Shown one piece after another: positions 23,755 to 29,138 of a DNA stretch of 38,064 nucleotides; position 1 is the stretch's first letter; every line of letters starts with the position of its first letter. The translations under genes were made by a program, and so were the position numbers. The stretch lies in IMG/VR virus record IMGVR_UViG_2526164598_000023; one strand, written 5' to 3'. The notes under the pieces are model-generated. The model ran no database searches. It was given only the letters and a program-made list of their open reading frames with translations, and was not told the DNA's origin. The DNA comes from a virus. Taxonomy: Duplodnaviria > Heunggongvirae > Uroviricota > Caudoviricetes.

Positions 23755-24472
23755 AACTGCTGCCTCCCCATGTGAGATATCGCGGTGCCAGTTCGCGCAG
23801 GATGCGCTGCGGATAATGGCGGTTCTCCCGCCAGCTGGCCGCATTGCGTCCGGCATTCACCGTGGCGACATGTCCGAACCAGCGGGTGCTGTCCAGACCT
23901 TTCTGTGATGCAAGCCGCCTGTCCCGTTGTACCCAGCCCAGACCACCGTTATAGCCCGACAGTGTCATGGCCATACGCTCGCAGTCACTGGCGGCGCTGA
24001 CACGCTGCCACAGCCAGCGGTCATAGCTGACCAGCGCCCGGATAGCCCATGCCGGATTAAACGGCTCACGACTGCTCAGCATCGGTATCAACTGGCTTAT
24101 CCAGTCGGCAGTGGCAGGCATGAACTGCGCCAGTCCCTGAGCGCCAGCCGGCGAGATCGCATCAGGTCGCCAGCCGCTTTCCTGATGCAGTTGCGCGGCG
24201 AAATCGGCCACCGGCGCAGACAGTCCCCATTCAAGCCGGGCATTACGGATCACATCATCGCGATACTGCAGCGCAGCCTGCGGGGGCTGCGCTGCGCATG
24301 CCTGGCTGAAAAAGCCGCCACACCAGAGCAGCCAGACAATCACCAGGTTGCCAGCAAGCTGCCACCAGAAGCTGTATTTATCGTTACGTGGTTCTCCGTG
24401 TCTGATGGCGGTTACGCCCAGACCAAAGGCGAACAGAATAATGAGGGTGATTTGAGGCCAGTTCATGGTCAC
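23738..24472 (-). CDS. Lytic transglycosylase (SLT domain) endolysin with N-terminal membrane anchor, 244 aa
   Basis: Two N-terminal hydrophobic helices followed by an SLT-type catalytic region with QLHQESGW and AQGLAQFMPATA. Confidence 0.8.
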   Translation of the reverse strand: MTMNWPQITLIILFAFGLGVTAIRHGEPRNDKYSFWWQLAGNLVIVWLLWCGGFFSQACAAQPPQAALQYRDDVIRNARLEWGLSAPVADFAAQLHQESGWRPDAISPAGAQGLAQFMPATADWISQLIPMLSSREPFNPAWAIRALVSYDRWLWQRVSAASDCERMAMTLSGYNGGLGWVQRDRRLASQKGLDSTRWFGHVATVNAGRNAASWRENRHYPQRILRELAPRYLTWGGSSCAASG

Positions 24473-24819
24473 AGTCCTGTTGCCACAGCCAGGCAGACCG
24501 CTGCAACAATCAGTGCACGGCGGATTAACGCAGCAGAAAACACCAGGTGAAGGCCGGTCTGTACCGGGAAACGCCCTTCAGCCATCAGCCTGTCGTCATG
24601 TTTCAGGTACTGACCGGGACGGGCTTTGGGGAAGAGCGAACGGTCAAGCCAGTAACCCAGCACTGCTGCCAGCGTGATAAGTGCCAGCTTGTAGATCACA
24701 ACAGGCAACTGCTGTGGCGAGACCAGAGCGATGATGCCCAGCAACAGCACTGAGGTCAGCAGCCAGCCGCTGAGGCGAGGTTTTTTAACAGGGGGAATGA
24801 ATTTTTTCAGGTTTTTCAT
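24469..24819 (-). CDS. Putative holin, three predicted TM segments, 116 aa
   Basis: Start placed at ATG 24817-24819 (MKNLKKF...) with AGGAG RBS; the stop overlaps the endolysin start by 4 nt. Confidence 0.4.
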   Translation of the reverse strand: MKNLKKFIPPVKKPRLSGWLLTSVLLLGIIALVSPQQLPVVIYKLALITLAAVLGYWLDRSLFPKARPGQYLKHDDRLMAEGRFPVQTGLHLVFSAALIRRALIVAAVCLAVATGL

Positions 24820-24933
24820 GTGTGTCTCCTCGTTTGGTGGAGACAGCATCACAAATGTGGCGGGATACGGATTTTAAACAGCGTTAATAGTGAAGATGTA
24901 AACGTGCACTGCATGATGACTTTGAAAGAACGA

Positions 24934-24961: not shown

Positions 24962-25007
24962 CCATCGCCCCACAGGAATGCGCTGTGAGCCGACCGAGGT
25001 TCAGTCA

Positions 25008-25019
25008 GTCTCGCGAGAC
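25008..25019. promoter_or_regulatory. Perfect 12-bp palindrome GTCTCGCGAGAC upstream of the methyltransferase gene
   Basis: Self-complementary 12-mer about 48 nt upstream of the ATG at 25067; TATAAT hexamer at 25042-25047. Confidence 0.25.
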
Positions 25020-25066
25020 CAGACTAGCCTGCCATATTTTTTATAATTGTAAAAGGCTTACAGATT

Positions 25067-25837
25067 ATGAAAATGCAGACATTACCCATCGTTCCATGGA
25101 TTGGTGGCAAACGCCGCCTTGCAAAACACATCCTGCCGCTGTTTCCGGCGCATGAATGTTATGTGGAGCCGTTTTGTGGGGCAGCAGCGCTCTATTTTCT
25201 TAAGGTACCCGGCAAGATCGAAGTCATTAATGATATCAACGGTGAACTGGTGAACCTGTATCGGGTGGTAAAACATCATCTGGAAGAATTTGTACGCCAG
25301 TTCAAATGGGCGCTGGTCAGCCGGCAGATCTACAAATGGCTGCAGATCACCCCGGAAGAAACACTGACGGATATCCAGCGTGCAGCACGGTTCTACTACC
25401 TTCAGAAGCAGGCGTTTGGAGGCAAGGTGGCGGAGCACAGCTTTGGTACCTCCACCATATCCCCGCCACGCTTCAACCTGCTGCGTATTGAAGAAGAACT
25501 GTCAGCGGCACACCTGCGGCTTTCCAGAACGGTCATAGAACACATGGACTGGCAACAGTGCATAGAACGATATGATCGCCCGCATACGTTGTTCTACTGT
25601 GACCCTCCATACTGGGGAACGGAAGGTTATGGTGTGGAGTTCGGACTAGAAAATTATGATCATATGGCAGATTTAGCACGCAGGATCAAAGGGAAGATGA
25701 TTATATCGGTGAACGATATCCCGGAAATGCGGCAGGCATTCAACGGTCTAAATATTCAGTCGGTTGATATCAGCTACAACCTCAAGATCACTGGCAAATC
25801 CAGTCGCAAGAAGGAACTCATTATCCTCAACTTTTGA
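25067..25837 (+). CDS. N6-adenine DNA methyltransferase, Dam-like, orphan (no adjacent restriction endonuclease), 256 aa
   Basis: AdoMet motif EPFCGAAALYF near the N-terminus and catalytic DPPY (YCDPPYWGTEGYG). Confidence 0.85.
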   Translation: MKMQTLPIVPWIGGKRRLAKHILPLFPAHECYVEPFCGAAALYFLKVPGKIEVINDINGELVNLYRVVKHHLEEFVRQFKWALVSRQIYKWLQITPEETLTDIQRAARFYYLQKQAFGGKVAEHSFGTSTISPPRFNLLRIEEELSAAHLRLSRTVIEHMDWQQCIERYDRPHTLFYCDPPYWGTEGYGVEFGLENYDHMADLARRIKGKMIISVNDIPEMRQAFNGLNIQSVDISYNLKITGKSSRKKELIILNF

Positions 25838-27032
25838 CCGAATAGTAAGACTTCATGCAGTGAATCAAGTACTGCATGAAGTCAAGGGCTGGTTTTGTGT
25901 ACCAAAAATAAACAGTGATAGCGGTAATAATTCCCATAACTAGAACACCACGTATAATCCAGAACGTACGTTTCTGCGTGTCTAGTCGCGCAGAAATACT
26001 GCTAAATACACCAGCCACGTCATCTTTAATGAAGGAATATTCCTTATTAATCTGTTTTTCTTTGTATTCAATTTCTTCGCCTAAGGCCTTTATAGATTGC
26101 ATCTGGTTCGAAAGTGCCAGCCAGATTAACGTTGCAGCAAAAATGCATCCCAGAAGAATTATTGTGTTTGTTATCCCTTGGCCTGACCATTTCGTAGCCA
26201 CTTTGAATTGGGTAGCTACGATAACAGAGGCAACAGGAATGCCAAGTATATGGTTCTGGATATCTGAAAACGCTTTGTGGATTTTACCCATTTCTTCGAC
26301 TTTTGCAGCACGCAGTTGATCCATTACTTTGTCATAAGAGAATCCAGAAGAGTAGATACGATACCCTTTCAGAAACTTTTCATGCAGACGCTGAATATTG
26401 TCCAGTAAATAAGCGAATACTAGAGGTGAATCAATTCCATCACTAACTGCTTGGATACTTTCAATCAGAATATCTAGCTTCTGATCCTTATGGGTATCAT
26501 CATTGAAACAAGCTATAAGGTTATCAAGATACTCTCTTTGCAAATTTTGTACATTTTCTGCAGCGAAGTGCGGTAATAGCTTGATAACTTCTTTTTTCAG
26601 AAAAACTAACTGACAAGTTGAGTTATCAAAGTAGGCCGCGGCCTCTTTTAGCAGGTTAACGAACTCGAGAATCTTCCGGTAGTTGCTGATGAAAACGGGG
26701 ATATCTTCATCATCATTACGAAACTTTGTTTCTAGGATGAAGTAATTAGCTGGCTCAAGGCACTGATGCTTTGGAGCATTTAGCAATTTTTCATGGGTGG
26801 AAAACACAAGTCCCAGTCCACTCCGTGGTGACGTCACACGTAGGATGATCGTGTTACCTGGAGCGATAGTGCCTGTATCAATAGAAAGACCATATTCACG
26901 AGGATCATCAAGCAAAGTATCAACCAGATCACAATCGGACTGATCTAAGAGCAACAGCGAACCGACACGAAACCCCTCTTGGAATTCCATACGACGATAC
27001 AGATCTGTCAGCATCTCAAATGAAATCGCCAC
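25827..27032 (-). CDS. Membrane protein with soluble N-terminal domain and two C-terminal TM helices, 401 aa
   Basis: GTG start at 27030-27032 two nt after the upstream stop, with a GAGG RBS (alternative ATG at 27014). TM helices ITNTIILLGCIFAATLIWLALS and FWIIRGVLVMGIITAITVYFWY; AT-rich codon usage. Confidence 0.65.
   Translation of the reverse strand: MAISFEMLTDLYRRMEFQEGFRVGSLLLLDQSDCDLVDTLLDDPREYGLSIDTGTIAPGNTIILRVTSPRSGLGLVFSTHEKLLNAPKHQCLEPANYFILETKFRNDDEDIPVFISNYRKILEFVNLLKEAAAYFDNSTCQLVFLKKEVIKLLPHFAAENVQNLQREYLDNLIACFNDDTHKDQKLDILIESIQAVSDGIDSPLVFAYLLDNIQRLHEKFLKGYRIYSSGFSYDKVMDQLRAAKVEEMGKIHKAFSDIQNHILGIPVASVIVATQFKVATKWSGQGITNTIILLGCIFAATLIWLALSNQMQSIKALGEEIEYKEKQINKEYSFIKDDVAGVFSSISARLDTQKRTFWIIRGVLVMGIITAITVYFWYTKPALDFMQYLIHCMKSYYSVKS
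25849..25883. repeat. Perfect 13-bp inverted repeat with 9-nt spacer
   Basis: GACTTCATGCAGT-gaatcaagt-ACTGCATGAAGTC, 12 nt past the methyltransferase stop and inside the last codons of the convergent 401-aa gene, at the boundary where composition becomes AT-rich. Confidence 0.7.
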
Positions 27033-27034
27033 GA

Positions 27035-28042
27035 TTAAACCTCAGTCATCCACATTTCCCTAAATTCTTCAGGTACATTACGTAGGGTGATAATATTTGT
27101 TTCCGGATCATAATCAATATAGCCTTCAGTTTTCCCTTCCCGGTCAAACTTAAGTTCCCAATATTTAGACTTGCCTTTAAAAGATACCAGAGCCCGAATG
27201 ACTCGACCATCAGGAACGAAGCCATCCGATAACTCCAACTCTTCAGCAGCAAGTTTACCAGATAACTCCTCGGGAGCCTGGGGCCAAATGGCATTAACAA
27301 GGGTTTCAAGACTAAGTGGTTCACCAGCCTTACTTAGTGCATGTAAGTGTTCAAACGCACTCTTAAGAAATGCATCTTTTTCAGCGCCGTCAAGTCCTTT
27401 CTCTGCCGCAAATGCTTTTAAAACGTCACGTAACTTTTCAGACTCTCGTTTGGCGATTAAGACATCATTACAGCCGAGGAACTGTTTAAAATAGTTTGAA
27501 ACATTACCTTGCCCCTTAAGAAAACTGATATAGCGCTCTGCGCCACTTTCCCACGCGGTTAAGTCAATGCGCCCAGCCATACGCAGCTTAGCAATATCAA
27601 GATAGGTACTATCTTGGATGTTAAAATCATCTGTGACAGTGGATCCAATGGTAGCGCTTACAATAGCTATCAACAGGTGTTCATTGTGTCCTATCACGAT
27701 ATTTGCAAAAAGAACATAACCACCAGTAGCCATGTTTTCTCGCTGAGAACGTTCCGTCAGGTGATGCATCATTCGGCAGGAACTTTGGTAGAAATCATCA
27801 ACACCTTCGAGAAAGTCCCCAGCCATTCGTTCCATAGGATAGTTATCCGTATCGCCTTCAAAATAGCCATAACCTTTACCTGTGCGTCCTGCATATTTTG
27901 CACAAATATCGTTTATAAGGCGCTGGGAGGCTTCAGTAACTAGACCTTCTTCAGGACTCAATCTCTCAGAAGCGTCTCCATTTTGTTGTTTGTCTAAAAT
28001 GTGAACTACAACGTGTTTAACTTCAATGGTCTGCTCAGACAT
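27035..28042 (-). CDS. NdpA/YejK-like nucleoid-associated protein homologue, 335 aa
   Basis: Segments GGYVLFANI..HLLIAIVS, YLDIAKLRMAGRIDLTAWESGAERYISFLKGQ and the C-terminal YIDYDPETNIITLRNVP resemble E. coli YejK as I remember it; same length (335 aa). ATG 28040-28042 with AAGGTGGA RBS. Confidence 0.65.
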   Translation of the reverse strand: MSEQTIEVKHVVVHILDKQQNGDASERLSPEEGLVTEASQRLINDICAKYAGRTGKGYGYFEGDTDNYPMERMAGDFLEGVDDFYQSSCRMMHHLTERSQRENMATGGYVLFANIVIGHNEHLLIAIVSATIGSTVTDDFNIQDSTYLDIAKLRMAGRIDLTAWESGAERYISFLKGQGNVSNYFKQFLGCNDVLIAKRESEKLRDVLKAFAAEKGLDGAEKDAFLKSAFEHLHALSKAGEPLSLETLVNAIWPQAPEELSGKLAAEELELSDGFVPDGRVIRALVSFKGKSKYWELKFDREGKTEGYIDYDPETNIITLRNVPEEFREMWMTEV

Positions 28043-28112
28043 TAGCTATCCACCTTATTTTTTATTGCTTAATGGCAAATAATTTCTGCTATATGTTCTC
28101 GTTAGGAACACA

Positions 28113-28520
28113 TTAACCCACATTTTTTAACCGCTCAATCGTTGCGGATAATTCCTTCAGTTGTTTTTCCATCTCAATCACACGCTGTTTTTCTTCAGCG
28201 CCTCGCATGAGATCTCGCCGAACCTCAGGATCTAACTGGTTTAGAAGTTCAAGCATTTTAAGGTCTGACGGGCTGAATTGATGTTGTGTTGGTACAGCAA
28301 CAATTTCTTTAGATGGAATATGTTCTTTACCGGTAAGTAGCCAATCGATCGATACACCCAAATGGGTGCTTAGCGCAACAAGAGCCTCTGCGTTTGGTTC
28401 TCTCTCTCCACGCAAATAGTTTTGAAGTGAGCGATATGGAATTTTTGATAAGTTAGATAATGCCTTTATTGTCATGCCATTAGCATCCATCACTTCACGC
28501 AATCTCTCTTTTGTACTCAT
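28113..28520 (-). CDS. Phage repressor, HTH (XRE-like), 135 aa
   Basis: Start moved to ATG 28518-28520 (MSTKERLREVMDANGMTIKALSNLSKIPYRSLQNYLRGER), an HTH; divergent from the ner-like gene. Confidence 0.7.
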   Translation of the reverse strand: MSTKERLREVMDANGMTIKALSNLSKIPYRSLQNYLRGEREPNAEALVALSTHLGVSIDWLLTGKEHIPSKEIVAVPTQHQFSPSDLKMLELLNQLDPEVRRDLMRGAEEKQRVIEMEKQLKELSATIERLKNVG

Positions 28521-28539
28521 TTGAACATATCTCAATTTG

Positions 28540-28559
28540 ACACACTCATTTGGGTGTGT
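28540..28559. promoter_or_regulatory. Candidate operator dyad ACACAC-N8-GTGTGT in the repressor/ner divergent region
   Basis: 6-bp inverted arms separated by 8 nt, centred between the two divergent starts. Confidence 0.3.
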
Positions 28560-28608
28560 ACAATAGACCCAATAGAGTACATCATAACCTAACAGGAACA
28601 CGGTGCAT

Positions 28609-28833
28609 ATGAACAAACAACAAGTTCGGGCACGGCTGGTTGAACGAGGCAGTAGCTTGCGCCAGTTCGCGCTTAACGCGGGCTATGAACCACGAACAGT
28701 CACCCAGGCAGTCAGTCGCTGGGCTGGTAAAAGTGAACTACCTCGCGGTCGTTTGACTTATCGGATTTTGCGAGATCTATCGGTTGCAATAGGTAAAGAA
28801 GTTACCCCCGGTATCCTTAAGGAGGCGTCATGA
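28609..28833 (+). CDS. ner: Ner-like DNA-binding protein, 74 aa
   Basis: MNKQQVRARLVERGSSLRQFALNAGYEPRTVTQAVSRW... matches the Mu Ner family; ATG 28609 with AGGAA RBS (the track start at 28603 is GTG). Confidence 0.7.
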   Translation: MNKQQVRARLVERGSSLRQFALNAGYEPRTVTQAVSRWAGKSELPRGRLTYRILRDLSVAIGKEVTPGILKEAS

Positions 28834-29138
28834 ATAAACCAAATACATCAAGCTCAGGTACCCGTATTTTGCGCGTTCTTAAGGCCTTACGTGGCCACGC
28901 TTTGAACGGTGTTTCTAACGGGGAACTAGCGGTTGCACTGCACGAATCACCGGCAAACATCAACCGGGCACTTAACACGCTCATTGAAGAAGGGTTGGCT
29001 CTGAAACTAGAAAACGGGCGTTTCGCACCAGGCATCCAGTTGCTGCAGATCGCCATGGCCCACAGTAACGAGATGGCACGTGCACAGGATCGCATTAACG
29101 AAATCAACCAACGTGTTATTTCAGGTAGTCGTTTGTAA
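28830..29138 (+). CDS. Winged-helix DNA-binding protein, 102 aa
   Basis: ILRVLKALRGHALNGVSNGELAVALHESPANINRALNTLIEEGL resembles a MarR/IclR-type wHTH. Confidence 0.5.
   Translation: MNKPNTSSSGTRILRVLKALRGHALNGVSNGELAVALHESPANINRALNTLIEEGLALKLENGRFAPGIQLLQIAMAHSNEMARAQDRINEINQRVISGSRL

Follow-up and report, generated by a model that had tools for sequence, protein, structure and literature searches.

A 401-residue candidate membrane effector paired with a YejK-like nucleoid-associated protein as putative prophage cargo

The IMG/VR virus record IMGVR_UViG_2526164598_000023 (Duplodnaviria; Heunggongvirae; Uroviricota; Caudoviricetes) is a stretch of 38,064 nucleotides (nt), here called the window, which carries on its minus strand two closely spaced genes, one for a YejK-like nucleoid-associated protein (NAP) and one for a membrane protein of 401 amino acids (aa). 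We estimate a probability of about 0.65 that the 401-aa protein serves as the membrane effector in a two-gene anti-phage cassette, which has the NAP as its other half and is carried as cargo by a Mu-like prophage. This kind of system is already known from two 2026 reports, on DS-1 (proteins DS-1A and DS-1B) and on type II PANGU (proteins Pag2A and Pag2B). What is new here is a divergent and widespread subfamily that has no PADLOC model, scores under the NCBIfam cut-offs and is left unnamed by current pipelines. The two genes and their junction are as follows.

25827 to 27032, minus strand: gene of the 401-aa membrane protein, a DS-1B/Pag2B-like candidate effector (GTG start at 27032; list of open reading frames, ORFs)
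27033 to 27043, minus strand: gene junction, with a GAGG Shine-Dalgarno sequence within the end of the partner gene, TAA, 2 nt and GTG (direct sequence reading)
27035 to 28042, minus strand: partner gene, encoding a 335-aa YejK/NdpA-like NAP (NA37), the candidate sensor (Pfam NA37, 1e-80)

An original prediction, made from the sequence letters, had placed a 401-aa membrane protein at 25827-27032, and this is borne out by the ORF list, by a separate public gene call that gives the same product on an identical contig, and by the homologues. The ORF is not a chance one, given that related proteins form 704 representative clusters at 50% identity (E ≤0.001; 107 clusters at E ≤1e-30) and that the protein matches phrog_5023, to which PHROGs assigns no function, at 6e-143. 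Two starts had been considered possible, and both are present, GTG at 27032 and ATG at 27014, the latter being codon 7 of the ORF. The GTG is favoured because conservation of F5 across 52 homologues is ≥90%, because GAGG (27043-27040) lies 7 nt upstream and because the TAA stop of the partner gene (27037-27035) ends 2 nt ahead. The layout of the junction suggests that translation of the partner and effector genes is coupled.

Both proteins are related to those of DS-1, one of the 42 systems that the DefensePredictor study validated (PMC13092281). DS-1A (WP_000355468.1) is an E. coli protein of 391 aa with a zinc ribbon and NA37, and DS-1B (WP_000150292.1) is a 404-aa hypothetical protein encoded 2 nt after it; cloned alone in a non-lysogen, DS-1 is protective and lowers plating by 7.6 logs for Bas1, 2.7 for Bas26 and 1.7 for Bas3 and T3 (PMC13092281). 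The 401-aa protein matches the NCBIfam family NF053869 (DS1_2_antiphage) at 3e-21 with 75.9 bits, and all 52 aligned family members (the protein itself and 51 homologues) match it as well. Aligned directly with DS-1B by BLASTP, the protein shows 23% identity over 302 residues (E 6e-10), and an hhalign comparison of the family profile with DS-1B reaches a probability of 95.5% (E 1.4e-8, 266 columns), covering the second half of the N-terminal domain (N-domain), a juxtamembrane motif and the first transmembrane (TM) helix. Common to the family and DS-1B is also a D-x-H motif in the N-domain (D179 and H181). Judged by these similarities, the 401-aa protein is remotely homologous to DS-1B, a validated anti-phage protein, and is not its equivalog. 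The partner in turn matches NF053868 (DS1_1_antiphage, ‘nucleoid-associated anti-phage protein’) at 1.4e-17, DS-1A with 23% identity (E 8e-9) and the YejK structure 9be2 in the PDB at 6.8e-30.

The second point of reference is PANGU, a set of two-gene operons built on YejK-like NAPs and described in a preprint of April 2026 (10.64898/2026.04.06.716658). Type II PANGU combines the NAP Pag2A with the transmembrane effector Pag2B, and the E. coli example needs both genes, shows no toxicity of either gene alone and gives an abortive-infection culture pattern (10.64898/2026.04.06.716658). Pag2B is modelled with an acidic ‘DNA-mimicking’ N-domain and a C-terminal TM domain; by itself, the N-domain binds Pag2A with a dissociation constant (KD) of 19 nM, GFP-Pag2A departs from the nucleoid during T4 infection, and T4 denA (EndoII) mutants escape the system (10.64898/2026.04.06.716658). 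How Pag2A engages and activates Pag2B is, according to the authors, still to be determined (10.64898/2026.04.06.716658).

We resolved the 401-aa protein into six segments, using AlphaFold2 (AF2) models, conservation in the family alignment and, for membrane helices, a Kyte-Doolittle 19-residue window together with a rough Hessa-type insertion sum.

26397 to 27032, minus strand: residues 1-212, acidic alpha/beta N-terminal domain, a candidate NAP-docking domain analogous to the DMK domain of Pag2B
26250 to 26396, minus strand: residues 213-261, long juxtamembrane helix with a G-Y...F-S-Y-D-K...K-I-H-K-x-F-S-D-I-Q-N motif (AF2 helix, conservation)
26193 to 26249, minus strand: residues 262-280 (ILGIPVASVIVATQFKVAT), membrane-proximal or marginal third membrane segment, moderately hydrophobic (Kyte-Doolittle, conservation)
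26109 to 26171, minus strand: residues 288-308, first clear TM helix (Kyte-Doolittle 2.33; family-averaged Kyte-Doolittle 2.5; Hessa-type sum -2.35 for residues 290-308)
25962 to 26108, minus strand: residues 309-357, amphipathic helical hairpin containing EEIEYKEKQINKEY at 319-332 (AF2 helices, hydrophobic moments)
25899 to 25961, minus strand: residues 358-378 (about 356-378), second clear TM helix (Kyte-Doolittle 1.95; family-averaged Kyte-Doolittle 2.3; Hessa-type sum +1.1 for residues 356-374)

The globular, soluble part of the protein extends to about residue 212. An AF2 model of this domain by itself, built with 81 sequences, has a predicted local distance difference test score (pLDDT) of 94.4 and a predicted template modelling score (pTM) of 0.89. 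The domain has a net charge of -15 and an isoelectric point of 4.55; over the family the median charge of the domain is -8.5. The original prediction had assigned about 280 residues to a soluble N-terminal domain, which proved too long, given that only residues 1-212 are globular and the long helix 213-261 follows them. In the AF2 model of the full-length protein (mean pLDDT 82.6) a single helix of residues 213-275 runs into the membrane region. G223, F231, S232, Y233, K250, D257, I258 and Q259 of the juxtamembrane helix are invariant in the family alignment, and conservation in the family peaks at residues 262-280 (block conservation 0.85-0.86), where P266, A268 and K277 are invariant. This hydrophobic segment, with a Kyte-Doolittle peak of 1.6 and a Hessa-type sum of +6.3, had been overlooked earlier.

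Residues 288-308 and about 356-378 are both credible TM helices. The two TM helices of the original prediction thus reappear in the Kyte-Doolittle peaks, the family-averaged profile and the Hessa-type sums, and the amphipathic or coiled-coil linker that it had placed between them, EEIEYKEKQINKEY, lies within the amphipathic hairpin. The two helices of the hairpin, 309-331 and 333-357, have hydrophobic moments of 1.17 and 0.97, and N309, Q310, E320 and R349 are invariant in it; in the AF2 model, helices 284-331 and 333-378 span the first TM helix, the hairpin and the second TM helix.

No Pfam family was found for the 401-aa protein beyond sub-threshold noise, a sequence profile search of the PDB returned nothing (best E 2.1), and a Foldseek search of the full-length model against the PDB gave no match at E ≤0.001. 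The Pfam, PDB profile and fold searches identified no catalytic family or fold either, in line with the earlier statement that the protein has no recognisable catalytic motif, and profile and structure searches placed it in no housekeeping membrane family. The CorA/Mrs2 magnesium channel was considered and rejected: neither a specific fold match nor the GMN signature after the first TM helix was found.

Members of the family are nearly all 380-420 aa long. A locus scan with one genome per species returned 59 loci, from gamma-, beta- and alpha-proteobacteria and a few metagenome-assembled genomes of other groups. An NA37 gene lies immediately upstream on the same strand in 56 of the 59 genomes, and the distance from its stop to the start of the membrane protein gene is -59 to +7 nt at every one of the 56 paired loci. 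The three loci lacking NA37 are identical Cupriavidus loci, which hold only a 208-aa ORF for the C-terminal half. No third conserved gene accompanies the cassette among the two nearest ORFs on each side in 51 genomes. These flanking ORFs span 66 and 63 different Pfam families, which include integrases, resolvases, DNA methylases, a restriction endonuclease, AbiEii, Shedu SduA_C and MqsR, as well as conjugation proteins, antiterminator Q and holins. Among complete E. coli genomes, 19 of 5,426 (approximately 0.35%) carry the whole 3.7-kb stretch at ≥99% identity, and RefSeq names the two proteins ‘hypothetical protein’ and ‘nucleoid-associated protein’ there.

Some members of the family differ from the common form. 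The Cupriavidus 208-aa ORF (locus L051, 7992-8618; also L052 and L053, one on a plasmid) corresponds to residues 191-392 with 44% identity, and may be a decayed remnant that has persisted in three genomes or else a membrane module that stands by itself. The chromosome of Jeongeupia wiesaeckerbachi (L012, L016) holds two copies of the cassette, each within a Mu-like prophage, and both have equal percent identities to the query proteins. A Paraburkholderia member (L067, 8001-9434) is extended beyond the usual length of about 400 aa to 477 aa; its gene has no recognisable prophage around it and is located 2.6 kb upstream of an Mrr-type restriction gene.

The window is, by its gene content, a Mu-like (Bcepmuvirus-like) prophage of E. 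coli. Around the cassette, the identical public contig encodes Mor, GemA, Mu Gam, an rve transposase and a MuB-like ATPase, together with Mu Gp27, the Mu portal and Mu F. The neighbours of the cassette in the window are given below.

24469 to 24852: holin (Pfam)
25067 to 25837, plus strand: Dam-type DNA adenine methylase of the D12 class, 256 aa (Pfam MethyltransfD12, 7e-28)
28113 to 28616, minus strand: prophage CI-type repressor, 167 aa, with a helix-turn-helix (Pfam HTH_3 and Phage_CI_repr)

Repressor, NAP and membrane protein follow each other in this order on one strand, with a 70-nt spacer between the repressor gene and the partner gene. No terminator-like site was found in this spacer (28043-28112) by a promoter and terminator scan, whose counts were at shuffle expectation and are therefore uninformative on transcription. 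The GC content is 40-47% over 25-29 kb versus approximately 57% in the flanks, and the Dam gene marks the other edge of this low-GC cargo region. The low-GC island of 25000-29000, which contains the Dam gene, the cassette and the repressor, suggests that the whole immunity and cargo region and the Mu-like backbone had different sources. The effector gene on the minus strand and the Dam methylase gene on the plus strand converge, and their 3′ ends overlap by 11 nt (25827-25837). There is therefore no space for a terminator between them, and transcription of the two genes could interfere with each other.

Where it is found in a prophage, the cassette sits at a classic cargo position. In Mu-like prophages it lies between the repressor and the lysis genes, and in lambdoid prophages of Citrobacter, Salmonella, Yersinia and Morganella between antiterminator Q and holin. 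Two close relatives of the window phage, Klebsiella phage KP12 and Escherichia phage PhiKM, are without it. The post-repressor slot of KP12 (L069, 3524-4057) holds a different gene of 177 aa with no Pfam or PADLOC match, and that of PhiKM (L070) holds nothing; the post-repressor slot is a variable cargo site. In the Morganella lambdoid prophage (L071, 5982-8215) the cassette points the same way as the late genes, at the position of Shiga toxin genes, and would be transcribed in the phage’s own lytic growth as well. A Citrobacter lambdoid prophage (L062-L064, 12039-17155) has colicin-domain and SLFN/AlbA_2 genes a few kb from the cassette, and one such strain has a reverse transcriptase beside an SMC-like ATPase; this cluster is likely competition and defence cargo.

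The cassette reading is supported, at the level of sequence, by the homology to DS-1A and DS-1B, by the architecture, by the pairing of the genes and by the mobile, prophage context described above. Defence itself, the need for both genes, relocation of the NAP and its binding to the N-domain would be as in the related systems, from which we carry them over by analogy, and the step of membrane damage we infer. In a healthy lysogen the NAP would sit on the chromosome, and the effector would stay inactive in the inner membrane, its acidic N-domain projecting into the cytoplasm. When a lytic phage enters and breaks down or remodels the nucleoid of the host, freed NAP would bind the acidic N-domain (residues 1-212), and the signal would be relayed to the TM helices through the highly conserved juxtamembrane helix 213-280. 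The C-terminal membrane helices might then rearrange or oligomerise, so that membrane integrity or potential would be lost and the cell would no longer support phage growth, that is, abortive infection. The original prediction of an abortive-infection-type, non-enzymatic membrane effector with an NdpA-like partner finds support in the matches to NF053869 and NF053868, in the hhalign alignment with DS-1B and in the architecture of PANGU.

A number of points weigh against this reading. The 75.9 bits of the 401-aa protein do not reach the NF053869 equivalog cut-off of 315, nor do the 63.7 bits of the partner reach the NF053868 cut-off of 330, and because both scores are far under these cut-offs, function may have diverged from that of DS-1. 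The partner is also without the N-terminal CxxC...CxxC zinc ribbon of DS-1A: DS-1A begins MDITCLECG...CDKCG, versus MSEQTIEVKH in the window partner, in which NA37 runs from residue 12. The 401-aa protein is likened to Pag2B by the described architecture and not by sequence, and the acidity of the N-domain is uneven within the family, with charges from -18 to -2. The pairwise divergence of the partner follows that of the N-domain more closely (Pearson 0.89) than that of the C-terminal membrane part (0.80); this agrees with a possible docking of the partner on the N-domain but is confounded by shared descent. As the preprint leaves activation of Pag2B open, membrane damage is therefore an assumption.

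We weighed four other explanations. The roles of the two proteins could be swapped, as in Kiwa, with the membrane protein as an anchor that senses phage attachment or DNA entry at the envelope and the NAP as the effector, coating incoming phage DNA and blocking its replication. This we consider unlikely. Kiwa pairs an inner-membrane protein (KwaA) with a membrane-held, non-specific DNA-binding protein (KwaB), the partner has a bona fide NA37 DNA-binding fold, and residues 262-394 of the 401-aa protein give a weak match to the PADLOC KwaA profile (8e-5); the idea of PagB as the sensor was also raised, then set aside, by the PANGU authors (10.64898/2026.04.06.716658). However, the KwaA lead was downgraded because only 3 of the 52 family members give the match, DS-1B gives none and fold searches of the 401-aa protein returned no KwaA. 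Pfam finds NA37 only and no DUF4868 (KwaB) in the partner, which has no PADLOC match, and the systems also differ in membrane topology and in partner fold, NA37 versus Rossmann-like plus DUF4868. It is improbable, too, that the N-domain is a degenerate LAGLIDADG-like fold acting on DNA rather than a docking mimic, which would make the protein a membrane-tethered nucleic-acid-binding or nuclease effector; we give this idea very little weight.

A role in the prophage’s own life cycle, either as a lysis-timing or holin-modulating protein that reads the state of the nucleoid or in superinfection exclusion by blocking DNA entry, is rather improbable. In all the prophage contexts examined, the cassette adjoins the lysis cassette; the Morganella copy, between Q and holin, has the orientation of the late genes, and the product is a small membrane protein that contains a helical hairpin. 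However, only 3 of 102 downstream neighbour ORFs in the 51 genomes are holins and another 3 are Q, and most contexts are not prophage lysis regions. The cassette is also missing from the close relatives of the window phage, lies on the strand opposite to the late operon in the three lambdoid prophages of Citrobacter, Salmonella and Yersinia, and has a DS-1 homologue that is protective alone in a non-lysogen; the junction between Q and holin is moreover a well-known cargo hot spot. The remaining explanation, an addiction (toxin-antitoxin) module that stabilises the prophage, with the membrane protein as toxin and the NAP as its neutraliser, is very unlikely. The tight operon of two overlapping or near-overlapping genes on mobile elements would suit it, and membrane toxins are common in such modules, but with its 401 aa and a large folded cytoplasmic domain the protein does not resemble the small membrane toxins. 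In type II PANGU, moreover, the genes are singly non-toxic and both are needed, and the NAP is an activator, not an antitoxin.

Beyond the cassette reading itself, we entertain as a doubtful but possible extension that a large unannotated clade of NAP-gated effectors is the rex-equivalent of temperate phages, co-transcribed with the repressor, and that the effector is a new gated oligomeric channel, with an acidic, degenerate homing-endonuclease-like domain as DNA decoy, a CorA-like stalk helix and a two-helix pore. If so, the gate would be the F-S-Y-D-K ... K-I-H-K-x-F-S-D-I-Q-N-x-I-L-G-I-P-V-A motif, which would explain the activation of Pag2B by Pag2A.

Descriptions of defence with a NAP as sensor date only from 2026, and they explicitly leave unsolved how its membrane-effector branch works. 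The divergent and very widespread branch reported here travels as prophage cargo, and a lysogen probably expresses the cassette together with the repressor. Its near-invariant juxtamembrane segment and the D-x-H motif would be the first targets for mutagenesis of the step from NAP binding to membrane damage. There is also a gain in annotation, given that the exact cassette is present in approximately 0.35% of complete E. coli genomes with the effector labelled as a hypothetical protein. The main value of the family is hence a well-conserved alignment for the question of how the membrane effector is activated, together with an annotation fix.

Compared with known proteins and systems, the partner has the same NA37 fold as housekeeping YejK/NdpA, over its full length. 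Housekeeping yejK is a stand-alone gene, whereas the partner is prophage-encoded and part of an operon, and its 186 bits against NCBIfam YejK miss the 341-bit cut-off of this equivalog; that it is the housekeeping YejK was rejected because of this score and the prophage-borne gene. The operon recalls lambda cI-rexA-rexB in its order of repressor, cytoplasmic (here DNA-binding) protein and membrane protein. Rex is expressed in the lysogen and aborts infection through its membrane component, and the cassette would resemble it in both respects. RexB differs in having 144 aa and no large cytoplasmic domain, and no sequence similarity to RexA or RexB was found (BLASTP E 0.91; hhalign probability 1%).

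DS-1 and the window cassette agree in having an NA37 gene followed by the gene of an approximately 400-aa protein across a 2-nt junction, in significant sequence homology for both proteins and in effectors whose N-terminal region is soluble and which share a juxtamembrane motif and have hydrophobic helices near the C-terminus. They differ in that identity is only approximately 23% and the window pair scores far below the equivalog cut-offs, and in that the 401-aa subfamily is found mainly in prophage cargo slots and carries only the RefSeq name ‘hypothetical protein’. Published examples of type II PANGU were chosen near defence islands, whereas the window cassette is prophage cargo beside a repressor. 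Type II PANGU and the window cassette share a YejK-like NAP, a tight bicistronic operon (a gap of 2 nt versus the <40 bp criterion), an effector with a C-terminal TM domain, represented here by two clear TM helices, and an acidic N-domain, the charge of -15 in the 401-aa protein being judged from composition. By this analogy, type II PANGU is the likely working model for the 401-aa cassette.

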